Positions 26,124-48,041 of a stretch of 64,000 nucleotides of DNA are shown here, in pieces. The position numbers and the translations under genes were made by a program. This DNA comes from a bacterium (lineage in GTDB: Bacteria; Patescibacteriota; Minisyncoccia; Phycocordibacterales; Phycocordibacteraceae), in NCBI GenBank assembly GCA_037200965.1, contig JBBCGK010000001.1, forward strand, positions 832,001 through 896,000, in the 5' to 3' direction. How positions within the stretch are numbered: the first letter of the stretch is position 1; each line of letters starts with the position of its first letter. The notes under the pieces were generated by a model. The model made no database searches and had not been told where the DNA came from. It saw nothing but the letters and a program-made list of their open reading frames with translations.

Positions 26124-27875
26124 GTGAAACCCATGCAGCTGTTTGCCAAAAAAGAAAAGCCTGTACATACGAGTTTCGGCCCGCCATATGCCGTGCTCAA
26201 TCTCTCCAAAGTCGGTCTGCGGTATTTCCGTTTCATGATCAAGTCGTCTCACGCTTCGAGGGATCGGCTCGTGCAGAAGTTCATAGACCATCCGAACGTC
26301 GGCTGGATATTCTCTGCGGAGGGCTGGTTCAATCTCGCCGTGGGCGTTTGGGCAAAGGACAATGCGGAAATCAACGATATCAGTTCCTCGATTCGCGCAA
26401 CGTTGAATCCGGGCGACGAGATTGTGTACCAATCCGAGCTCACGAGCCTCTACGGCTTCGGGAACCGGCCAGTCGCGGGAGAGGTCCGCGCGATGGCCAT
26501 AGTCGATGCCGTTTATACTCCGGTCGATCTCGACCATCTTACATTTGATTATCTTAAACTTGTCGCGCTCGACAGTTCGCTCCCGGAACGTGATGCCGCA
26601 GAAATCCTTGGAATAACGGAGGAAGCACTAACGCGGTTGCGAAGTGAGCTCGAGGCCGCGGGTGTCATAGTCGGGTACCAGGACCGGCTCAACTACACGG
26701 GTACGTATTACAAAGTATTCATCGATACGCTCCGTGCCAAGACGCCCGATGCGGTCCAGAAGCTTACCGATCGGCTCTGGGGAGATATGCGGTGCATTTA
26801 CATAGAACGCGCCAACGGAAAATACGATTTCGAATTCGAACTTGTGCTTGAGCACAAGGCGGCTATATGGGAATATGTCAGGGATTTTCCGGAGCACAAA
26901 ATAGCGGTCCTGACGAAGAACTTGTATACCAATCTCTACCCGCTCAATAAAATCGCGAACTTGCGGGAGATTAAGGATTCGATTCTCGCGCAAAGTGGAA
27001 GCGTTATCGATCTGCGCAACTCGAAACTCTGGTATCTGAATCCGAGAGGCGCGAACGCATATCTGAACATATATGAAAACAGGAACTATTTCGAGGCGAT
27101 GGAAAAGAGCGAACTCGATCTGTTCAGCGATATAACCGCTCATATCCGGGAGAAAAGCGGTGCGGAAAGCTACAGCCTCATAGACATCGGCAGCGGGGAC
27201 GGGCTCAAGGCAAGAATTTTCATAGAAAAGCTCGGAGAAGAAAAGATAAAAGCCTATTATCCGGTCGATATACAACCGATCGAACTTGCGGCCGCCCTTA
27301 AGTCGCATGCGGCCGGCGCATACGCGAAACATCCGGTGCTTCTGGATATCGAAAATCTATCGGCACGGTTTCCCTTAAAGCTTCACCCCGGCGAAGGACA
27401 GATAACCATTTTCCTTGGCGGCACATATGGAAACTTCAAGAACGAACGGATCAACGCGTATCTGAAACCGCTATTGCGCGATCCGTCTGCCGTGGTGCTC
27501 GTTTCGATGCCGATTGTGTCCGGGAAAACCGATGCCGATATGATCGAACTCTATTCGGGGAAACAGATGGAAGATATGGCCTTTGGTCCTCTGCTCCAGA
27601 TAGGCTTCGCGCTTGGCGACTTCGAGGCGAATCCGGCGCATCCCGATCTGCGCATACAGCCGGTCGTCGAGGATTCCAGGCTTGTTACCACATTTACCCT
27701 TAAAAACGATAAGATAATTCTTGGAAAGCGTTTTGATAAAGGGACTGTTTTCAAGATGACCACTTCGTGGAAGCCGACGCTTGAGGAAGTTCGTGCCGCG
27801 CTCGAACGTGATTTTGTTATCGAGAAGATGTTCCACAACAGCGAGATGTCCATTTCCATTATTAGGGCAAAATGA
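26124..27875 (+). CDS. Fusion protein: tandem AsnC/Lrp-like (HTH+RAM) units fused to an EgtD-type (Methyltransf_33) SAM-dependent methyltransferase
   Basis: Residues ~140-260 read LDHLTFDYLKLVALDSSLPERDAAEILGITEEALTRLRSELEAAGVIVGY (AsnC-type HTH) followed by a RAM-like segment. Residues ~345-583 read SLIDIGSGDGLKAR...YYPVDIQP...IFLGGTYGNFKNERINAYL, matching the EgtD/histidine-N-methyltransferase family. Confidence 0.55.
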   Translation: MKPMQLFAKKEKPVHTSFGPPYAVLNLSKVGLRYFRFMIKSSHASRDRLVQKFIDHPNVGWIFSAEGWFNLAVGVWAKDNAEINDISSSIRATLNPGDEIVYQSELTSLYGFGNRPVAGEVRAMAIVDAVYTPVDLDHLTFDYLKLVALDSSLPERDAAEILGITEEALTRLRSELEAAGVIVGYQDRLNYTGTYYKVFIDTLRAKTPDAVQKLTDRLWGDMRCIYIERANGKYDFEFELVLEHKAAIWEYVRDFPEHKIAVLTKNLYTNLYPLNKIANLREIKDSILAQSGSVIDLRNSKLWYLNPRGANAYLNIYENRNYFEAMEKSELDLFSDITAHIREKSGAESYSLIDIGSGDGLKARIFIEKLGEEKIKAYYPVDIQPIELAAALKSHAAGAYAKHPVLLDIENLSARFPLKLHPGEGQITIFLGGTYGNFKNERINAYLKPLLRDPSAVVLVSMPIVSGKTDADMIELYSGKQMEDMAFGPLLQIGFALGDFEANPAHPDLRIQPVVEDSRLVTTFTLKNDKIILGKRFDKGTVFKMTTSWKPTLEEVRAALERDFVIEKMFHNSEMSISIIRAK

Positions 27876-28993
27876 GCAATTCAGCAGTACACGACCACAT
27901 CATCATCGGCGCCGGAATAGCCGGACTCTCGGCCGCGTACCACTTCGCCAAAGACGGCCATTCCGTCGTCGTGCTCGAGGCGACTGACGGCAAGAGCGGC
28001 GCGAGCTTCGCCTCGACCGCGGAAATGAATCATGATCCGGACGCGAAGTGGGAGAAGGTCGTGGAGCGGTTCGGCATTGAAGGCGCGCGGGAAGTCTGGG
28101 AACTGTCCGACTTCGCCATGGAGAAGCTCGCGGATTTCGCGCACCGCCCCGGAGAAGAGCATTTCGGCACCGAGCGGCTTCCCGCGCACCTGTTCTCGTA
28201 CAAAGACGGAGACGCGGGCATGCTTCGCGGCAAGTACGAGTTTTATAAGAGCATCGGCGCGAACGCAGAATTTACGGAAAACGGAAGCGCCCTCCATGAA
28301 AGCTTCAAAGCCGTCCTTACGATCAGGGACGAAGGCGCAACTAACAATCAGATGATACTCAAGGAACTCGCGCACGGCATGCGGGAATTGGGAGGAGAAA
28401 TCCACCATCACCGCCGCGCAGTCCGTATCGAAGAAAGCGCAGACGCCGTGCGTGTTGAGACCGAAAGCGGCGAACTTGTTTCCGGAAGAAGCGTACTTAT
28501 CGCCACGGGCGACGGCCGCGGGCTCGTACCCAAGGATCTTCTCATAGGGCGCATCCGCACGTTCGTCATCGCCTATGAAAAGCATGGTATGCGGGATATT
28601 TTCCGCGACTCGCTCATGTGGGATACCGACGAGCCGTTCCACTATGTCCGTCCCTTCGACCACACGCGGTTATGGGTGGGCGGGGAAGATGCGGATGAAA
28701 GCGCATACGACCCGAAAGACGAAAAAGAAAAGTATGCCGCGCTCGAGGACTATTCCAAAAACGTTCTGCATGTCGACGATGCATACAAACGGGACGGGCA
28801 GTGGAGCGGCGTCTTCTTCCCGAGCGATCGCGGCCTTCCGTATATCGGCGAGGTGCCGGGCAGCCGGATACGGCTGAGCCTCGGCTTCGGGGGCTCCGGC
28901 ATCCTCACGAGCTTCATCTCCGGCTATCTGCATGCCGCATGGCTTCGGGGCGAACTCCCCGAATACCGGCGGCTGTTTGCGGTGGGGTGGTAA
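27872..28993 (+). CDS. FAD-dependent oxidoreductase (DAO family)
   Basis: N-terminal HIIIGAGIAGLSAAYHF GxGxxG fold. ATGA overlap with the upstream fusion gene. Confidence 0.7.
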   Translation: MSNSAVHDHIIIGAGIAGLSAAYHFAKDGHSVVVLEATDGKSGASFASTAEMNHDPDAKWEKVVERFGIEGAREVWELSDFAMEKLADFAHRPGEEHFGTERLPAHLFSYKDGDAGMLRGKYEFYKSIGANAEFTENGSALHESFKAVLTIRDEGATNNQMILKELAHGMRELGGEIHHHRRAVRIEESADAVRVETESGELVSGRSVLIATGDGRGLVPKDLLIGRIRTFVIAYEKHGMRDIFRDSLMWDTDEPFHYVRPFDHTRLWVGGEDADESAYDPKDEKEKYAALEDYSKNVLHVDDAYKRDGQWSGVFFPSDRGLPYIGEVPGSRIRLSLGFGGSGILTSFISGYLHAAWLRGELPEYRRLFAVGW

Positions 28994-29036: not shown

Positions 29037-29570
29037 CTATACGTCGCGCACCTTGCGGACGATAGGTATGCGGACGCGAAGCATGCTTTCGCCTCGATTG
29101 CCGTATTTCACCCGAAACCCCTGCACGCCGTCGGTAAAGGTCTTGGCGTAGATGCCCATCGCGTTGAAGTTGAGCGTATACGCCCATACGACCAGGGTGA
29201 CGTGGCTCTCGATGCGCGTGTTCGTTTCTTGCGTCCACGCGATCACTTCGCGCAGACTTGCTTCGGTAAGCTTCGGGCCGAGCTTTTGGCCTTGGAACCG
29301 AGGGTCGATGCCGATCTGCTCGAGCTCGACGGCGGGTTCGGCCCGATGAAAACCGCCATGCGTTTGCCATCCCGCGTATCCGGCAACTTCGCCGTCGATT
29401 TCGATGACGAAATACTGATACAGCGGGAAGGACTTGAACCAACACGTCGCCCATTGGAGAGCGCCATCCGGCAAGTCCCGGTCGCCAAGGAATACGCCCG
29501 CATTGATCGCCGCTATACGTGGCAAGTCTTTTTCTTCGGCCCTGCGGACCGTTGCCTGTTGTTCACTCAC
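29037..29570 (-). CDS. GNAT family N-acetyltransferase
   Basis: ELEQIGIDPRFQGQKLGPKL acetyl-CoA binding motif. Confidence 0.7.
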   Translation of the reverse strand: MSEQQATVRRAEEKDLPRIAAINAGVFLGDRDLPDGALQWATCWFKSFPLYQYFVIEIDGEVAGYAGWQTHGGFHRAEPAVELEQIGIDPRFQGQKLGPKLTEASLREVIAWTQETNTRIESHVTLVVWAYTLNFNAMGIYAKTFTDGVQGFRVKYGNRGESMLRVRIPIVRKVRDV

Positions 29571-32269: not shown

Positions 32270-33265
32270 CTATAAAATGCCCCTGAATAAATGAACCGTA
32301 TGGCCAACCGGAATCCCTTGATGGTAGAGCTCCGCGGCTTCTCCCGCGGAGACCTTGAAAGGAGTGAGTAGTTTCTTCACTTCCTCGCCGCTTACCTGAA
32401 AGGATGGATTCTCGATACCTGCCTGATGCAGCGCTTCTTTGCTTTCCGTATACCGATAGAAATCGAAGCTGGTACCATATGCCTCCTCAAGACGGTGATA
32501 ACCCTCGAAATCTATGAGCGCTTCCGTTTGTTCCTTGAACCCCACCACCACTTCCTCCATACGGTATCCGCATGCGGCGAAGAGCTTCCGTACTTCTTCG
32601 AGCGGCATCCTGCCGCCGAGTTCCGTGATGATTGAACCCCCTTCAACAAGTATATTCTTCGCGCTTTGGAGAAAAGCATATTGCGCGCCAAGGGCCCATC
32701 CCAGGAATTCTTCCGGGGGATGATAGCCCTCGTACGTACCGACCATAAGGAACGTCCCCTTTTCCGCGCCCTTTGTCAGATCTTCTTCGCCGGTAGCGGG
32801 GAGATTCGGGATATTACCATGAACGAACTCGACTTTCTTTCCGGTCTTTTCAATAGGTTCGCAAAACGACCCGACGACAGGAGTGATCGTAAGATCTTTG
32901 TTCGTAATCGTATGGTGTAAGTTGTAGATCGTACCCTCGAGTATCCCTTCATCTATATCGGTGACGATGAGTTCTTTTACGTCTTGGTCGAAGATCCTGG
33001 CGATAGCGATTGCTTCTACCCCGCTGCAGATACCGACGATGCTAATGCGCTCCGGCTGACGTCCTTCTTGTTCGAGCATTGTCCTGAAATGCTTCATGCC
33101 TACTGCGGTGTAATAGGCCCAGTTGTCTTCGATATCGGTCTTGTAGGGATACATGCCGTCCGTCTCAACAATAGTTGTCGGAGTATCTCCGATGCCAGCC
33201 ATATAAAGAAGCGGGGCTATATCCACTGACCGACCTTCAAGCGCATCAAGATTTTTCATATCCAA
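32270..33265 (-). CDS. Hypothetical protein, possible class I methyltransferase fold
   Basis: ISIVGICSGVEAIAIARIF ... LIVTDID resemble MTase motifs I/II. Weak. Confidence 0.4.
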   Translation of the reverse strand: MDMKNLDALEGRSVDIAPLLYMAGIGDTPTTIVETDGMYPYKTDIEDNWAYYTAVGMKHFRTMLEQEGRQPERISIVGICSGVEAIAIARIFDQDVKELIVTDIDEGILEGTIYNLHHTITNKDLTITPVVGSFCEPIEKTGKKVEFVHGNIPNLPATGEEDLTKGAEKGTFLMVGTYEGYHPPEEFLGWALGAQYAFLQSAKNILVEGGSIITELGGRMPLEEVRKLFAACGYRMEEVVVGFKEQTEALIDFEGYHRLEEAYGTSFDFYRYTESKEALHQAGIENPSFQVSGEEVKKLLTPFKVSAGEAAELYHQGIPVGHTVHLFRGIL

Positions 33266-33325: not shown

Positions 33326-33781
33326 ATGCCAAACGCCATAAGCATCATCAAGCGGGACCATCGGGCGGTCGAGAAGGATTATAAAACCTATAAGCGGGCG
33401 AAGGACAAGGACCAGAAACGCAGGATCGCAGAGCGCATCTTCGACGCGCTCGACGCGCACGCGAAAATGGAAGAAGAGGTGTTTTATCCGGCGGTGACGG
33501 AAGCGGGAGGGCCGGAACTGCAGAAGATGATTGTCGAGGCGCTTGAGGAGCACGGCGAAATGAAGCATCTCGTCGCGCGTTTCCGCGCCCCGAACGCCGA
33601 GGAGCGGGCGGGAATGGGCATGCGCATCGACGAGCTTCTCGCGGGCGTGATGCATCACGTGAAGGAAGAGGAGAAATCGCTTCTTCCAAAATCCGCACGG
33701 GCGCTCGGAAAAGCCCGTATCACGGCGCTTGGAGAGCGGATGGAGCCAATGTCGCCGAGCGCGAAGCTTCCGAAACCCTAG
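33326..33781 (+). CDS. Hemerythrin HHE cation-binding domain protein
   Basis: IKRDHRAVEKDY...EEEVFYP...HGEMKHLV...MHHVKEEE are His/Glu pairs typical of the hemerythrin-like fold. Confidence 0.65.
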   Translation: MPNAISIIKRDHRAVEKDYKTYKRAKDKDQKRRIAERIFDALDAHAKMEEEVFYPAVTEAGGPELQKMIVEALEEHGEMKHLVARFRAPNAEERAGMGMRIDELLAGVMHHVKEEEKSLLPKSARALGKARITALGERMEPMSPSAKLPKP

Positions 33782-41375: not shown

Positions 41376-43889
41376 ATGTCGCGGCCTCTAAAAAATAGAG
41401 AAGTCTTTTCGAAACTACTCAGCGCAGTTTCTTCAGAAGAGATAGCGTCTTTAATCGAAAACGAAGTCTTTTTTAAACCAGAAAATTGCAGATGGATTCC
41501 TTATGGAAGACGTGAGCTGAATGCCCCACAGATCGAGGGACAAATGAAAAGCTCAAGTAATGCGTTGGTAGAAAAAATCACCAATTCAACAGATGCTCTC
41601 CTAATGAGGCGATGCTATGAAGTCGAAGGGGTGGCACCTAATAGCGAAGACAAACGATTACCCAAGACTCTTTCTGAAGCAATTACAAAATATTTTGGAA
41701 GCGAAGAAGAAATAAATAAAAATCGAAGCGCATGGGCAAGACAGCATCTCATGGTTTTGGCTGAGGGTGATAAAAAGAGGCCAACAATTACTGTTATTGA
41801 TCGAGGCGAAGGACAAACTCCCAATAGAATTCAGGATACAATCGTTGGCTTGAGCGAGAGCATAAAGGAGAAAATAAATTTTGTTTTTGGTAAATACCAT
41901 CAAGGAGGGTCAGCCGCTATACGTTTTGCAGGTAGCAAAGCTAAGTGCTACCAGCTTGTCCTGTCCCGGCGCGCGGAGAGTATTGCCGATAAAGGTAAAG
42001 AAAATCCGTGGGGATTTACGTTGGTAAGGAAAAGTTTTAAAAACAGAGTTCCTTATTACGAATACTGCACAGACAAGGATGAAAACACCTTTTCTTTCCC
42101 GTACGATAAACCAATAAAAATTGATGGTCTGGAACTGGACTTTATCGATGGGTCACTTATCCGTATGTACGATTACTACTTGGATAATCCATCAAATATC
42201 ACTTTCGGGTTTCATTCACTGGCCTTCGATTTTGATCAAAAGTTACAGAAACCGCCACTCCCTATCTTTCTGCAAGATAAGAGAGGATGGAAAGGAGACA
42301 CTAAATATACAATTGCAGGCTTACTAAGGCGAATTGAGGATAATAAAAATATTATCAGCGATGATATTACCCTTCCTGCAGGTTTAGGAGAGATCGGAAC
42401 TCGCAATATCCGCTGCATTCGCTTGAAGCATATAAGCGATGCGGAAGGAGTAAAATCCTATAAAGAATTAAATCAGAAAATATTCTACCTGGAAAACGGT
42501 TTGGCTTTGGGATATGAGACCGAATCTTTTGTGCGAACAGATTGTCAGCTTCCCGCTCTGGCCCCCTATCTCCTCTGTTATATCGATATGTCTGATATTC
42601 CAGTTGAGTTGGTAAATATCTTTCACTCTGGAAGAGAAGAATTGGCTCGAACCGAGGATTATCACATCTTAAAAGATCGCCTAAAAAAGTTCTTTGAGAA
42701 TGAAGTCTTTGAGAAGTGGGATAGAGAATACCAAGAAAAAAGCTTGATCAATTCCAATGAGGATAATAAGGAACTCGATAAGCTCATTGAGAAGGCCATC
42801 GTCGATGATCCGGAACTCAAGGAGTTACTGGGTATTGGTGAAGAAATCAAGATCCCGAAGGGGAAAGAGGAGAATAAGGAGAAGTACATTGGCGAGGAAC
42901 ATCCAAAAATGTTTGAGCTTGTAGGGAGTCAACCAAAAGAGGTTGATAAATCTTCTTACGCCCTTATATCTTTTAAGACCGAGGCAGAAGATAAACTCTT
43001 TACTAGAAAAAAGAGCCGCTATTATATTGATTGGTCCAAAGATTCAACCATCCTTGATGTGGTGGTTCGTAGTATGAATAAAGGTATTGTGTCTTTGCGC
43101 GTGGATTGCAGGGAACATGCCAGCGTTGGCGATCAGGATAAGATTACTTTCACTCTGCTGGATTCTGAAAAAGTAAAAAAGTTTGAACAAATCGTTACAT
43201 TTAACGTAATTGAAACACCGCCTTATGAAGGTTCATATTTCCCAACGTACTTTAAGCCATTGAAGAAAACGCTGAAGATTCCATCGAAAACAAACAAAAA
43301 GTTTAGTTTTGCTACAGACGTTGCAAATGATTATTTCTCCAGAGAGGATGATCCTGGATTGTTTGAATTTGAAGATCGTGATGATCTGCGTTTAAAAAAG
43401 TCCCGTTTAAATGATGGCGTTCTCGAAATTACCTTTTATGCCGCTACTGAAAAGTTGGGGAAACTACCGGATGCTAAAGTAGTAATTAGCGATACTTCAA
43501 ATCATACGTTTGATATCTCTATACCCATCGAGATCGTCTCTCCCGAGGAGAGTTCCAGGCTTAACGAACCAAAGAGAAATCCTGTATATGAAAGAGACTG
43601 GCCCACTCACGGCTGGGATGAACATAGTATTGCCAGTGTTGATTCGTCCAGGACACAAGGCTTAATAGTAAATTTGAACGTAGATTCTAAGCCCTTGAAG
43701 GATTTAAAGAAAATGGTTGGCCTTGATAAAGTCGGAAGCGCAGAGAATAAATATATTGCCGATATTTACATTTATTCCCTCTATCTTTATTTTGAACTAA
43801 AAAATGATCCTGACAAGGATCGGGTTCTAGGTTCTGCAATGAAGGCTATTGGGAAGGCCCTTCCCGGAATGATAAGAAAAATCATTTAA
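41376..43889 (+). CDS. Large (837 aa) protein with an N-terminal GHKL (MutL/MORC/HATPase_c-like) ATPase domain; C-terminal ~600 aa unassigned
   Basis: Bergerat-fold motifs: N-box LVEKITNSTDAL (E..NS.DA), G1 box ITVIDRGEGQTP (DxGxG), G2-like FGKYHQGGSAAI. The gene is AT-rich and convergent with a DNA MTase. Confidence 0.6.
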   Translation: MSRPLKNREVFSKLLSAVSSEEIASLIENEVFFKPENCRWIPYGRRELNAPQIEGQMKSSSNALVEKITNSTDALLMRRCYEVEGVAPNSEDKRLPKTLSEAITKYFGSEEEINKNRSAWARQHLMVLAEGDKKRPTITVIDRGEGQTPNRIQDTIVGLSESIKEKINFVFGKYHQGGSAAIRFAGSKAKCYQLVLSRRAESIADKGKENPWGFTLVRKSFKNRVPYYEYCTDKDENTFSFPYDKPIKIDGLELDFIDGSLIRMYDYYLDNPSNITFGFHSLAFDFDQKLQKPPLPIFLQDKRGWKGDTKYTIAGLLRRIEDNKNIISDDITLPAGLGEIGTRNIRCIRLKHISDAEGVKSYKELNQKIFYLENGLALGYETESFVRTDCQLPALAPYLLCYIDMSDIPVELVNIFHSGREELARTEDYHILKDRLKKFFENEVFEKWDREYQEKSLINSNEDNKELDKLIEKAIVDDPELKELLGIGEEIKIPKGKEENKEKYIGEEHPKMFELVGSQPKEVDKSSYALISFKTEAEDKLFTRKKSRYYIDWSKDSTILDVVVRSMNKGIVSLRVDCREHASVGDQDKITFTLLDSEKVKKFEQIVTFNVIETPPYEGSYFPTYFKPLKKTLKIPSKTNKKFSFATDVANDYFSREDDPGLFEFEDRDDLRLKKSRLNDGVLEITFYAATEKLGKLPDAKVVISDTSNHTFDISIPIEIVSPEESSRLNEPKRNPVYERDWPTHGWDEHSIASVDSSRTQGLIVNLNVDSKPLKDLKKMVGLDKVGSAENKYIADIYIYSLYLYFELKNDPDKDRVLGSAMKAIGKALPGMIRKII

Positions 43890-45202
43890 TTCTTCTCCAT
43901 TACGACTATATATTCAAATTCATACGCACGAGTTTTTGAAGGATTGTCCATTCCAGTAAACTTTCCGCTTTCAGTATCACGCCACGGAGTTATCATTTTA
44001 TTTGGTATTTCCCGCTTAATAAAGTCTACGTTCGTAAAACCAGCGGCCTGCATCTGTTCTGCCGCCACCTGTGCGTTCTGAATTTCTACACCCCGAAGAC
44101 TTGTGTTTCCAATAATTACGCAAGCCTTCCCGCCCTTCTTAAGAATTCGATGAGCCTCGGCGAAGACTTTTTTCATATCTAGGAAGTAATTAGCAACGTC
44201 GATAGCAAGCGGGCGTTCAACTAGCATGAGATCGTCGACAATTTTCGCCCCTATGATGCTATTAAAATTGCCGGCCTTTTTGGTCTTTGAACTCGTACCA
44301 ATAAAAGTTCTGCGAAAATCTATGAAACTATTACTGAAGTGATGCCATTTCTTGAAGTGTTTAGCATCGTCCCCGAACCACAGCAACGTAAGCTGATGAA
44401 GATCAGCATACTCATAGGAAGTCACATAAGGCGGAGAAGTCACTATCAAGTCGATAGATTCGGATTTAATTGGGAATGTTTTGGTCGAATCTCGACGATA
44501 CATTTTTGTCGGGATGCTGATGCGTTTTGCTTCAGCTAGGTTGTTGTAAAATAAATCATTCTTTCTAATCATTGAATCCAGATGTCGAAGAAAGGACTGT
44601 TTAGGGACCGGTATGATCTTGTCTTTGTCAACTGTCGGCTTGATACTTTTCATTAACCATCGAGAGCAGTTTTTCAGGTTATGTGAGAAAGCGCACAAGA
44701 AAAATCTACGAACGTGCGGACTCTTAATTTTCTTTATTGCAAAGTAAATTCTATCGAGCTCAATAACGGTTTCCGCATCGAACCAATAAGTAATTCGAGC
44801 ATGATGTGGGCGAGAGACGCTCGGAGCTGCATCATAGTATTCCAAGAATCTCTCTTTATGATTTGCAAGTGTACGCGGCTTAATCGCGGTGGTCTTTGTT
44901 TGAGTGATTAACTTCGCAACTGGATTTATATCAAAGCCGATACTCGGATGTCCTAGTAACTTTGCTTCCACCAAAGTCGTGCCACACCCACCGAATGGAT
45001 CACAAACGACTTGTGTAGTATGCGGCGCGTAATCTTCAATCAATTTACGAACAATTTGCGGAATAAACTTTGCCGGGTAACGATGATAGTCGTGGGAAAA
45101 GGCAGTAGTTTGTGAGCGACCAATATCTCGAAAAGACCACTCTTCACGCGGTTGCAGGCTTAAAAAAGTATTTCGGATGTTTTCGATATCAACAGTGGCC
45201 AT
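43886..45202 (-). CDS. N6-adenine/N4-cytosine DNA methyltransferase
   Basis: Motif X/I YPAKFIPQIVRKLIEDYAPHTTQVVCDPFGGCGTT and motif IV LIVTSPPY. AT-rich. Start taken at MATVDIEN; the longer ORF runs to 45277. Confidence 0.8.
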   Translation of the reverse strand: MATVDIENIRNTFLSLQPREEWSFRDIGRSQTTAFSHDYHRYPAKFIPQIVRKLIEDYAPHTTQVVCDPFGGCGTTLVEAKLLGHPSIGFDINPVAKLITQTKTTAIKPRTLANHKERFLEYYDAAPSVSRPHHARITYWFDAETVIELDRIYFAIKKIKSPHVRRFFLCAFSHNLKNCSRWLMKSIKPTVDKDKIIPVPKQSFLRHLDSMIRKNDLFYNNLAEAKRISIPTKMYRRDSTKTFPIKSESIDLIVTSPPYVTSYEYADLHQLTLLWFGDDAKHFKKWHHFSNSFIDFRRTFIGTSSKTKKAGNFNSIIGAKIVDDLMLVERPLAIDVANYFLDMKKVFAEAHRILKKGGKACVIIGNTSLRGVEIQNAQVAAEQMQAAGFTNVDFIKREIPNKMITPWRDTESGKFTGMDNPSKTRAYEFEYIVVMEKN

Positions 45203-45352
45203 ACTAAGAGGTAGTATAAGGGCAGGCCGGAGACGATTCAAGCACATGTCGTGTGTTCTTTGGCCCGGAGGAGCCACAGCAGATTCCGAAGTACATACAA
45301 GCGGTATCTTCGGTTTATTCGATAATTATCACCACGCGCGTATAATGGCTGC

Positions 45353-46354
45353 ATGGCTAAACGGAAAAAGGACTCAGAGATACATATGCCCGTCGATGTC
45401 GTCGTGTACCAGGCCAAAAGCGGAGCTATCGAGCTGCGCGGCGATTTCAGCAGGGAAACGGTCTGGGCGACGCAGGCACAGATTGCAGAGGTTTTCGGCG
45501 TTGAGCGATCCGTCGTGACCAAGCACATCCGGAATATTCTCAAGGACAAGGAACTTGAGGAACGTTCAGTACGTGCAAAACTTGCACATACTGCCGGGGA
45601 CGGCAAGACGTACCAAGTCGAGCATTATAACCTCGATGCCATCATTTCCGTTGGATATCGCGTGAACTCAAAGACAGCCACGGCGTTCCGCCAGTGGGCG
45701 ACGAAGACCCTGCGCTCGCATATCGTCGAGGGCTATACGATCAACCGCGCCCGCGTCGCGAAGAACTACGACGCGTTCATACGCGCGGTCGGTGAGATCA
45801 AGGCGCTTTTGCCCTCCCGTGCCGCGATCGGGGACGCAGGCGTCCTTGAGCTTGTCGCATTTTTCGCAGACACCTGGCTGTCGCTCGATGCGTACGATCG
45901 CGAGCGCTTCGTCCCGGTCCGCACGACCCGCAAGAAGGTCGCGCTTACCGCCGACATCCTCATGCGGAGCGTCTCGGTCCTTAAGTCGGAACTCATCGCG
46001 CGCGGCGAAGCGTCGGAACTCTTCGCCGCCGAGCGGGAGGTGAAGGCCCTTGAAGGGATCGTCGGCAACGTCTTGCAGTCGTTTGGCGGAAAAGAGCTCT
46101 ATCCGAGCGTCGAGGAGAAGGCGGCGCACCTTCTTTATTTCATCGTGAAAAACCATCCGTTCGCAGGCGGCAATAAACGCACGGGCGCATACGCGTTCGT
46201 CTGGTTCCTTGACCGTGCGAAGGTACTGGACCGGGAACGCATTACCCCGAGCGCACTCACCGCGCTCACGCTGCTCGTCGCGGAGAGCGATCCGAAGGAG
46301 AAAGAACGCATTACCGGCCTCGTGACGATGCTTCTCGGGCTCTCAAAGAAATGA
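45353..46354 (+). CDS. RhuM-family N-terminal domain fused to a Fic/Doc domain
   Basis: The N-terminal IELRGDFSRETVWATQAQIAEVFGVERSVVTKHIRNI...YNLDAIISVGYRVNSKTATAFRQWAT matches RhuM. The C-terminal HPFAGGNKRTGAYAF matches the Doc-type HxFx(D/N)(A/G)NKR motif. Confidence 0.75.
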   Translation: MAKRKKDSEIHMPVDVVVYQAKSGAIELRGDFSRETVWATQAQIAEVFGVERSVVTKHIRNILKDKELEERSVRAKLAHTAGDGKTYQVEHYNLDAIISVGYRVNSKTATAFRQWATKTLRSHIVEGYTINRARVAKNYDAFIRAVGEIKALLPSRAAIGDAGVLELVAFFADTWLSLDAYDRERFVPVRTTRKKVALTADILMRSVSVLKSELIARGEASELFAAEREVKALEGIVGNVLQSFGGKELYPSVEEKAAHLLYFIVKNHPFAGGNKRTGAYAFVWFLDRAKVLDRERITPSALTALTLLVAESDPKEKERITGLVTMLLGLSKK

Positions 46355-46361
46355 CGGGTAT

Positions 46362-48041
46362 ATGACGCAAGGCGAAGCGCTCAATATCCTCAAGACAGGC
46401 GCGAACGTCTTTCTCACGGGCGAGCCTGGGAGCGGCAAGACCCACACCGTAAACGAATATGTCGCATGGCTCCGTTCCCATGACATCGAGCCCGCGATCA
46501 CGGCTTCGACCGGGATAGCCGCCACCCATATCCAGGGAATGACGATCCACTCATGGAGCGGCATCGGGATAGCGGAATCGCTGTCGGAAGCCGATCTCGA
46601 CCGGATCGCAAGCAAGGAGCACGTCGCGCGGAGAATCGCGAAGACGCATGTTCTCATTATCGACGAGGTGTCGATGCTATCGGGCGAAGTGCTCCGGATG
46701 GCGGACCGGGTATGCCGGGAAGTGCGCAGAAGGCCGGAGCCGTTCGGCGGGCTGCAGGTGGTTCTCGTGGGCGATTTCTTCCAGCTGCCGCCCGTGACCC
46801 GGGGGGGAAAGGAAGTAAGCTTCGCCTTCGATTCGCCTTCGTGGCGGGAGCTCAACCCGATCATCTGCTATCTCACCGAACAGCACCGGCAGGACGACGC
46901 GAAGTTCACCGCCGTGCTCTCGGCGATACGCGCGGGAGACTGGGACCAGTCGCATGTTTCGGCGATCACATCCCGCGAGACCGACGGCGACGAGCTCGGG
47001 GACGAGACGCCCCGGCTCTTCACGCACAATGCGGACGTGGACCGTATCAACGGCGACAAGCTCGCGGGCATTAAAGGAAACGCGAAGACGTACGAAATGG
47101 AGTCGAGCGGATCCCCGGTCCTCATCGAGGCGCTTAAGCGCGGCTGCCTTTCGCCCGAAACTCTTACGCTTAAAGAAGGCGCGATCGTGATGTGCACTAA
47201 GAATAACCAGGCCGCGGGATACGTGAACGGGACCCTGGGAACCGTGATCGGCTTCTCGACAGGCTGGGGCGCCTCCGCGAGCCCCATAATCGAGACGAAA
47301 GACGGCCGCGAACTCACCATAGAGCCCGCGGACTGGGCGGTCGAAGAAAACGGCAAGGTACGGGCGAAAGTAACTCAGGTGCCGCTCCGCCTTGCCTGGG
47401 CGATCACGGTCCACAAAAGCCAGGGGATGAGTATGGACAGTGCGGCTATGGACCTCTCGAGGGCATTTGAATACGGGCAAGGATATGTGGCGCTCTCGCG
47501 TGTACGGTCGCTCGACGGACTCCACCTCCTTGGCTGGAGCGAGGAAGCGCTCAGGGTACATCCGGCCGTGGCCGCGAGGGATGCGGAATTCCGCGAGGCT
47601 TCGCTTGAAGCGGGCGCGGCATTTTCAGCGCTCGAAGAAGACGGGAGCCGTGAGACTATGGAGCGCAATTTCATCAAGGCCTCGGGCGGCACGCTTGAGG
47701 CGCGGGAAGCGGGGAAGCCCAAACCACCAAAGAGAAGCACGTACGAAGAAACCCTCGCGCTTATCGAAGCGGGGAAGACGATCGAGGGAGTGGCAGCCGC
47801 CCGCGCGCTCACGTTCGGCACCATCACGGACCACGTGGAGAAGCTCGTGAAGGGCGGGAAGCTCGATACGGAAGACGTGCGGCGCATTATCCCGGTCAGA
47901 CTCCACGATGCGCTCCCGGATATTTTCGAGGTATTCCGGGCCGTGGGCGCAGAGAAGCTCGCGCCCGCATTCGCGCGGCTTGGGAGCGAGCACGGCTACG
48001 ACGACCTGCGTCTCGCGCGGCTTCTCTATGAACGAAAGTAG
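46362..48041 (+). CDS. PIF1/RecD-like SF1B DNA helicase with a C-terminal HTH-like domain
   Basis: Walker A GEPGSGKTH, Walker B IIDEVSML, FGGLQVVLVGDFFQLPPV (PIF1 signature), and a C-terminal KTIEGVAAARALTFGTITDHVEKLVKGG. Confidence 0.8.
   Translation: MTQGEALNILKTGANVFLTGEPGSGKTHTVNEYVAWLRSHDIEPAITASTGIAATHIQGMTIHSWSGIGIAESLSEADLDRIASKEHVARRIAKTHVLIIDEVSMLSGEVLRMADRVCREVRRRPEPFGGLQVVLVGDFFQLPPVTRGGKEVSFAFDSPSWRELNPIICYLTEQHRQDDAKFTAVLSAIRAGDWDQSHVSAITSRETDGDELGDETPRLFTHNADVDRINGDKLAGIKGNAKTYEMESSGSPVLIEALKRGCLSPETLTLKEGAIVMCTKNNQAAGYVNGTLGTVIGFSTGWGASASPIIETKDGRELTIEPADWAVEENGKVRAKVTQVPLRLAWAITVHKSQGMSMDSAAMDLSRAFEYGQGYVALSRVRSLDGLHLLGWSEEALRVHPAVAARDAEFREASLEAGAAFSALEEDGSRETMERNFIKASGGTLEAREAGKPKPPKRSTYEETLALIEAGKTIEGVAAARALTFGTITDHVEKLVKGGKLDTEDVRRIIPVRLHDALPDIFEVFRAVGAEKLAPAFARLGSEHGYDDLRLARLLYERK

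Follow-up and report, generated by a model that had tools for sequence, protein, structure and literature searches.

The histidine N-alpha-methyltransferase EgtD, which makes hercynine for ergothioneine, holds the alpha-amino and carboxylate groups of its substrate with Tyr56, Asn166, Tyr206 and Ser284, Asn166 being the alpha-amino ligand, and recognizes the imidazole through Glu282 together with a water molecule held by Thr213 (PMC8593015). The siroheme decarboxylase NirDL/AhbA-AhbB (PDB 4ch7, 4czc) is a case of a single-chain tandem AsnC/Lrp-like fold that has been re-used outside transcription. Here we describe a gene that joins an EgtD-fold methyltransferase to a tandem Lrp/AsnC-like module in one protein of 583 residues. 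It lies at 26124..27875 on the plus strand of a 64,000-nucleotide stretch, hereafter the window, from a bacterium of the family Phycocordibacteraceae (Patescibacteriota; assembly GCA_037200965.1, contig JBBCGK010000001.1, positions 832,001 to 896,000). The fusion is a real and uncharacterized domain architecture conserved across homologues, and a literature search found no publication on a fusion of AsnC/Lrp with an EgtD-type methyltransferase.

We favor, at about an even chance of being correct, the interpretation that the protein is an EgtD-fold N-alpha-methyltransferase for a substrate other than histidine, coupled to a decayed tandem Lrp module that serves in ligand sensing or oligomerization. 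A tandem Lrp/AsnC regulator would have shed its first helix-turn-helix (HTH), its second being released from sequence constraint, and in that decayed form would have become the N-terminal module (RAM1, winged HTH, RAM2) of an EgtD-fold enzyme. The C-terminal domain would bind S-adenosylmethionine (SAM) together with a free, non-histidine L-alpha-amino acid, whose alpha-amino group it would methylate. The RAM domains would pair within the chain as a pseudo-dimer, as they do in NirDL, and act as a small-molecule-binding and/or oligomerization module that tunes or assists the enzyme, and not as a sequence-specific DNA binder.

Domain organization of the fusion protein

The open reading frame (ORF) begins with a GTG codon at 26124, and an alternative ATG start at 26133 (codon 4) yields the 580-residue form that is present in the databases as a 100% identical protein (P0001). 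An AlphaFold2 (AF2) model built from a 28-sequence alignment (pLDDT 87, pTM 0.79) shows, from N to C terminus, a disordered tail (residues 1-12), RAM1, a winged HTH (wHTH), RAM2, a conserved linker and the EgtD-like domain; all of the segments described below are encoded on the plus strand. RAM1 (residues 17-111; 26172..26456), delimited by AF2 secondary structure, the alignment and conservation by segment, has the beta-alpha-beta-beta-alpha-beta topology of an Lrp/AsnC-type ligand-binding-like domain. Its invariant residues are S28, G31, R33, Y34, P57, G67, W68, A77, N80, E82, S104, E105 and L109. In alignments with free-standing tandem Lrp proteins RAM1 is colinear with their first RAM domain, and no HTH precedes it in the model. 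The three-helix wHTH (residues 136-190; 26529..26693) was located by matches to AsnC/Lrp proteins in the PDB, with residues 165-179 forming the recognition helix, and RAM2 (residues 193-270; 26700..26933) by the AF2 model and profile alignment to the PH0061 and PH1519 Lrp structures.

When the family profile was compared with the PDB, solved AsnC/Lrp proteins were matched at E 4e-6 over residues ~125-250. The wHTH-then-RAM order of Lrp/AsnC regulators is thus seen in the second unit (136-270), and the first unit is a RAM domain alone. A direct hhalign comparison of RAM1 with RAM2 gives an in-register but weak match (E 0.0024); an internal duplication giving rise to the two is plausible, although this test by itself does not demonstrate it. 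The initial annotation had read the first ~330 residues as two AsnC/Lrp-like units and the last ~240 as the methyltransferase. A tandem AsnC/Lrp-like module is indeed present and conserved, the N-terminal half models as an AsnC-type fold, and the ORF coordinates and strands given for this gene and its downstream neighbor are correct, but the first copy consists of a RAM domain without an HTH. The order of the two halves likewise stands, but the module ends at ~270 and not at 330, and the EgtD-like fold spans ~300 residues (280-583) and not 240.

The methyltransferase domain (residues ~280-583; 26961..27872) is a complete EgtD-fold (Methyltransf_33) SAM-dependent enzyme domain, in which a cap at the N terminus (SKLWY, Y313, Y322) is followed by a Rossmann core and, at the C terminus, a substrate domain (Y477, S548-W549-K550). 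SAM-binding motif I (D354-I-G-S-G-D-G360) is encoded at 27183..27203, and the G432-G-T434-Y-G-N437 loop, in which N437 corresponds to EgtD Asn166 and T434 to Thr163, all invariant, at 27417..27434.

The methyltransferase domain and its substrate

Membership in the EgtD/Methyltransf_33 family, which the initial annotation proposed, is well founded. The Pfam Methyltransf_33 model (PF10017) matches residues 303-463 at E 6e-16 and passes the gathering threshold (58.7 bits against a cut-off of 23), and Foldseek ranks EgtD structures first (E 1e-18; TM-score 0.74-0.81 normalized to EgtD, over ~330 columns), the top match being the engineered EgtD E282A/M252V (PDB 4pip). A search of the PDB with the whole-protein profile did not reach EgtD, and the active site was mapped by aligning a bridging profile of free-standing relatives to Mycobacterium tuberculosis EgtD and counting residues in each column across 28 sequences.

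The residues that hold the amino acid backbone in EgtD are retained: Tyr56 (Y322), Asn166 (N437) and Tyr206 (Y477) in 28/28 sequences and Ser284 (S548) in 27/28. The SAM motif residues D354, G356, G358 and G360, and D382, the acidic residue after beta2, are invariant (28/28). The side-chain pocket is different. EgtD Glu282 is replaced by T, I, L or S in the fusion family, Thr213 by V, M, F or Y, and Met252 by Ser or Thr, and Leu stands in place of Tyr39. The fusion family has four invariant aromatic pocket residues (Y304, Y313, Y435 and W549), only one of which, Y304, is also invariant in the free-standing relatives, where position 282 is mostly Ala or Gly and also Ile.

A genuine EgtD, an L-histidine N-alpha-methyltransferase making hercynine for ergothioneine, is what the names of three family members at NCBI imply ('L-histidine N(alpha)-methyltransferase'; P0001, P0021 and P0080), and both the PF10017 match and the rank of EgtD as best structural match agree with it. 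However, the NCBIfam EgtD equivalog model TIGR03438 scores 43.9 bits against a cut-off of 290.9, the imidazole-contacting glutamate is gone along with the three other pocket residues, and EgtB-, EgtC-, EgtE- or EanB-like genes are found neither within ~5.7 kb upstream and 3.7 kb downstream of the gene nor in eight other loci. Such a role is highly improbable, and the fusion protein is, judged by its sequence, not the ergothioneine enzyme EgtD; the absence of an ergothioneine context noted at the outset is borne out, and extends to the histidine-specific residue.

Because the amino and carboxylate ligands are kept, Glu282 is lost and the equivalog score falls far under its cut-off, the C-terminal domain is probably an N-alpha-methyltransferase for a free amino acid other than histidine. 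Since the pocket is hydrophobic and aromatic, the amino acid that it accepts is probably hydrophobic or aromatic itself. Folds, residue conservation, distribution, the missing conserved partner and the inverted constraint on the HTH are observed; catalytic activity and substrate class, like the role of the RAM module, are properties that we infer.

The Lrp/AsnC-derived module

The pattern of conservation in the N-terminal half is the inverse of that in its free-standing relatives. No structured segment of the fusion family is less conserved than the recognition helix (165-179), which has a top-residue frequency of 0.31 as compared with 0.58-0.71 for the other structured segments of at least 40 residues, and the wHTH net charge ranges from -7 to +3 (mean ~-2.6), being acidic in most members. 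The free-standing tandem-Lrp proteins used as a control are more diverse (mean pairwise identity 30%, against 46% for the N-terminal half of the fusion family), and in them this helix is conserved above all other segments (0.52, versus 0.41-0.43 for the RAM domains), with net charges of +4.5 for the wHTH and +3.6 for the recognition helix. The conserved basic recognition helix expected of Lrp/AsnC regulators is therefore absent from the fusion family, and Pfam HTH matches to the fusion protein are below threshold (E 0.006-0.16, versus 1e-24 in the free-standing relatives). RAM1 is as conserved as the Rossmann catalytic core and has many invariant polar residues. Because the recognition helix is relaxed and mostly acidic and RAM1 strongly conserved, the opposite of the free-standing proteins, constraint has shifted off the surface that would read DNA and onto the RAM domains, as expected if the module binds a small molecule or packs on the enzyme and has ceased to read DNA, in parallel with siroheme decarboxylase. 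DNA binding by the fusion family has probably been lost, and the description of the N-terminal half as a regulator is not supported. The accompanying suggestion that the RAM module provides allosteric control or substrate delivery is a reasonable one.

The protein could instead be a one-component transcription factor, an Lrp-type DNA binder whose EgtD-like domain senses SAM or an amino acid or is a moonlighting enzyme, as in BirA and PutA. The wHTH fold is retained and matches AsnC/Lrp structures, the N-terminal module has typical tandem Lrp regulators as its relatives, and the Joint Genome Institute (JGI) names other members 'DNA-binding Lrp family transcriptional regulator'. A subclade (P0048, P0077, P0132) has also gained an additional MarR/IclR-like wHTH at its N terminus, hinting that some members act on DNA, and other Methyltransf_33 proteins (P0212, P0131) carry wHTH-containing N-terminal regions. 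Against this stand the relaxed and acidic recognition region, the sub-threshold HTH matches, the deletion of the first HTH, which leaves one HTH per chain, and the frequent lack of a separate intergenic space upstream of the gene (9 nt in the window, and 2 nt or an overlap at loci L004 and L007). We consider a transcription factor unlikely.

The extra wHTH of the P0048/P0077/P0132 subclade comprises ~60 residues (alignment columns 1-70), matches Pfam HTH_24/HTH_IclR and contains a conserved helix IS.SM.HR.LK.L; its sequence suggests a secondary gain of a DNA-binding domain.

A further possibility is that the N-terminal tandem is itself substrate-binding or catalytic, either as part of a bifunctional enzyme or with the RAM module presenting the acceptor, which might then exceed a free amino acid in size. 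Structurally, the N-terminal half matches NirDL best, RAM1 is conserved to the same degree as the catalytic core, and the pTM of the model suggests a fixed domain arrangement. But the invariant carboxylate ligands Y322, Y477 and S548 point to a free alpha-amino acid as acceptor, there is no tetrapyrrole context (heme d1 and alternative heme biosynthesis genes were found at none of the loci examined), the similarity to NirDL is at the level of the fold only (9-13% identity), and the free-standing Methyltransf_33 relatives work without such a module. This seems to us rather improbable, somewhat more so than a transcription factor.

Several points weigh against a non-histidine methyltransferase with a decayed Lrp module. 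The active-site mapping rests on profile alignments at ~20% identity and not on superposed coordinates. The strength of conservation in RAM1 could signify substrate binding or an obligatory interface beyond allostery. An acidic and variable HTH is no proof that nucleic-acid binding has been lost, and both the wHTH gained by one subclade and the wHTH regions of P0212 and P0131 speak against its complete loss. Even so, both database names seem to over-annotate these proteins, since the EgtD equivalog cut-off is missed, Glu282 is absent and the HTH has decayed.

Relatives and distribution

Searching the databases for the same fusion recovered at least 120 clusters of full-length homologues of 565-600 residues with 37-76% identity, those with named sources coming from Parcubacteria, Paceibacterota, Kaiserbacteria and Moranbacteria. 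A profile searched exhaustively against 1.84 billion representative proteins returned only about six full-length representatives at 50% identity together with two classes of partial relatives, and scanning a single genome for each of 185,579 species gave 13 full-length and two truncated loci. These 15 loci are mostly in Paceibacterota, Kaiserbacteria, Moranbacteria, Uhrbacteria, Peregrinibacteria and Peribacteria, with a few records under other bin labels (Saccharibacteria, Bacillota, Pseudobdellovibrionaceae and Micrarchaeota). The fusion gene is accessory and patchily distributed, and is not a core gene of the candidate phyla radiation (CPR). The homologue at L022 5989-7701 (Candidatus Peregrinibacteria JAAZXH010000023.1) reads under genetic code 11 as two ORFs, of 204 and 342 residues; recoding, an error in the assembly, a frameshift or decay to a pseudogene could each account for this.

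The first class of partial relatives consists of proteins of 300-330 residues that match the C-terminal domain only, belong to Pfam Methyltransf_33 and have a common SKLWY cap motif; genome matches place them in DPANN archaea, e.g. Candidatus Forterrea (CP045477) and ainarchaeum. The C-terminal domain has its closest relatives in these uncharacterized proteins (E 1e-38 to 1e-20, 21-28% identity), which share its backbone ligands, but they lack the N-terminal module and have Ala, Gly or Ile at position 282. Members of the second class are 315-335 residues long and match profile positions ~12-250 colinearly, starting ~50 residues into their own sequence. They are tandem Lrp/AsnC proteins with a (wHTH-RAM)x2 organization and two strong AsnC-type HTH domains (Pfam, E 1e-24), and those with names are from Woesearchaeota (NQU78794.1) and Nanoarchaeota (MFC1696997.1). 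These DPANN proteins are colinear with the fusion module (E 1e-27 to 1e-16) and share the motifs GY.xYR..IK and VGW...G..DL...WAK, but differ in having two HTHs with conserved basic recognition helices and no enzyme domain. Because they align colinearly from the point after their first HTH, the N-terminal module is, by this comparison, a tandem Lrp that lost its first HTH.

A Rosetta-stone test by hmmsearch found no Lrp-like neighbor of the free-standing Methyltransf_33 genes in four DPANN loci. In L027-L030, from three or four archaeal genomes, the free-standing gene sits between genes for histidyl-tRNA synthetase-like and alanyl-tRNA synthetase-like proteins (judged by eye); the genomes are close relatives, and the synteny may have no functional meaning. 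The SKLWY Methyltransf_33 clade is repeatedly fused to other modules. Additional N-terminal regions occur in P0212 (588 residues), P0131 (413), P0162 (465) and P0151/P0189 (469/484), and consist of a wHTH together with an unknown domain, a wHTH by itself, or a helical domain; two members of the clade carry an insertion of ~170 residues inside the Rossmann domain.

Genomic context

Immediately downstream of the fusion gene is a gene (27872..28993, plus strand) for a 373-residue DAO-family FAD oxidoreductase, which matches the whole of Pfam PF01266 (E 2e-43; profile positions 1-353 of 353). Its nearest solved relative is glycine oxidase (E 1e-8), and weak NCBIfam matches are to pipecolate, glycine and N-methyltryptophan oxidases. 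The two genes overlap in the sequence aaATGAgc, from which the initial annotation proposed an operon encoding a two-step pathway. The methyltransferase and flavoenzyme would then act on one metabolite, for example by methylation followed by oxidation or demethylation, and the shared strand and the occurrence within the DAO family of oxidases of amino acids and N-methyl amino acids are compatible with this.

Comparison with other loci argues strongly against it. Clustering of neighboring ORFs from 18 loci by all-against-all BLASTP showed the DAO gene next to the fusion gene in 0/17 other loci, including that of the 76%-identical P0002, and it is downstream in none of eight loci obtained from exact protein look-ups. 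DAO orthologues form ~43 Patescibacteria clusters, and they occur in other contexts. The closest of them (68% identity) lies in L031, a region syntenic with the window in the order HI0933-like, membrane protein, DAO, RluA-type pseudouridine synthase, ABC ATPase, MliC-like, GDSL lipase and DUF218; identity to the window counterparts is 69-89% for the proteins downstream of DAO, 75% for the HI0933-like protein and 43% for the membrane protein. There the DAO gene directly follows the membrane-protein gene after an 11-nt gap, with no methyltransferase gene between, and a second orthologue locus, L032, likewise has no methyltransferase neighbor. Overlaps of four bases occur at 5/36 same-strand ORF pairs in the window, including unrelated pairs such as Pirin/HI0933, and are poor evidence of a functional link in compact CPR genomes. 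A shared pathway is very improbable, and the proposed operon is not supported.

Since L031 is syntenic but has no methyltransferase gene, the conserved backbone has either gained or lost the fusion gene. The G+C content of this gene is 51% (61% at third codon positions), versus 59-63% (70-76%) in the flanking genes. We interpret the fusion gene as an accessory insertion, and the DAO gene as an unrelated backbone gene that is its neighbor by chance. A scan for promoters and terminators over 22-30.5 kb of the window gave no enrichment relative to shuffled sequence.

A search for conserved neighbors over the 18 loci found no recurrent partner other than small class-I methyltransferases (four loci) and NUDIX proteins (three loci). 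The former are heterogeneous and have no homologue in the window, and their recurrence was judged coincidental. Small class-I SAM methyltransferase genes were recorded at L003 4331-4930, L007 4346-5020, L018 7733-9115, L009 8162-8854 and L033 4208-4882; they adjoin the fusion gene in three loci and are nearby in a fourth, and the gene for the free-standing tandem Lrp P0171 is divergent from one of them.

The backbone stretch has taken up several small insertions. A GNAT acetyltransferase gene (29037..29570, minus strand) and a hemerythrin gene (33326..33781, plus strand) are both absent from the otherwise syntenic L031. So is an ORF of 331 residues (32270..33265, minus strand) with a G+C content of 50%, low like that of the fusion gene, which has neither a Pfam match (E up to 1) nor a PDB sequence match. 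By eye it has class-I methyltransferase-like motifs (IVGICSGVEAIAIA...LIVTDID; GNIPNLP), and it may be a second inserted uncharacterized methyltransferase. Further along, an island of low G+C content (41376..46354; 39-49%, compared with 56% for the whole window) contains an 837-residue ORF without a Pfam match that is convergent and overlapping with an N6/N4 DNA methylase gene (43886..45277, minus strand), followed by a RhuM/Fic protein gene (45353..46354) and a Pif1-like helicase gene (46362..48041). It looks like a mobile restriction-modification or defense island.

Implications

These observations correct the annotation of the family, for which neither 'L-histidine N(alpha)-methyltransferase' nor 'Lrp family regulator' is justified. 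They also provide an evolutionary case in which a transcription-factor scaffold, once fused to an enzyme, loses constraint on its HTH while its ligand-binding domains gain it. Both building blocks of the fusion are common to CPR bacteria and DPANN archaea, which are ultra-small episymbiotic prokaryotes of largely unknown metabolism, and the family is a target in the search for new amino-acid betaines or N-methyl amino acids in these organisms. More speculatively, and with a low probability similar to that which we give a transcription factor, CPR bacteria may carry a previously unrecognized kind of enzyme, in which a former feast/famine regulator serves as an amino-acid-sensing or substrate-presenting module wired to the N-alpha-methyltransferase domain. 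Such an enzyme would make a novel N-methylated amino acid or betaine for use as an osmolyte, signal or host-interaction metabolite, its synthesis being gated directly by host amino-acid supply, and this would be a second enzymatic recruitment of the AsnC/Lrp scaffold, independent of siroheme decarboxylase.

Comparison with known systems

Compared with EgtD itself (PDB 4pim/4uy5/7scf), with which it shares ~20% identity, the fusion protein differs in its substitutions at the positions of Glu282, Thr213, Met252 and Tyr39, in its Lrp-derived N-terminal module of 270 residues and in its lack of an ergothioneine gene context. In losing the acidic residue at 282 and having a more hydrophobic pocket it is more like the engineered EgtD M252V/E282A of PDB 4pip, which binds tryptophan, and those natural EgtD-family methyltransferases that make betaines of aromatic amino acids.

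For the N-terminal module (residues ~17-270) the analogy with siroheme decarboxylase that was drawn initially holds at the fold level. The tandem AsnC-like fold is present, but two HTH-RAM units and detectable sequence similarity to NirD/L/G/H are not, and the Pfam NirdL-like_HTH model does not match the fusion protein. NirDL keeps both HTHs and is itself the catalyst, whereas the fusion module has no first HTH and is joined to a separate enzyme. By analogy only, with no homology of the N-terminal modules implied, the arrangement resembles enzymes regulated by ACT/RAM-type domains, in which a ligand-binding module is attached for allostery or dimerization and not for DNA binding, and the small-molecule O-methyltransferases MmcR, RosA and DnrK, in which an N-terminal wHTH attached to the enzyme is a dimerization domain and does not serve in DNA binding.

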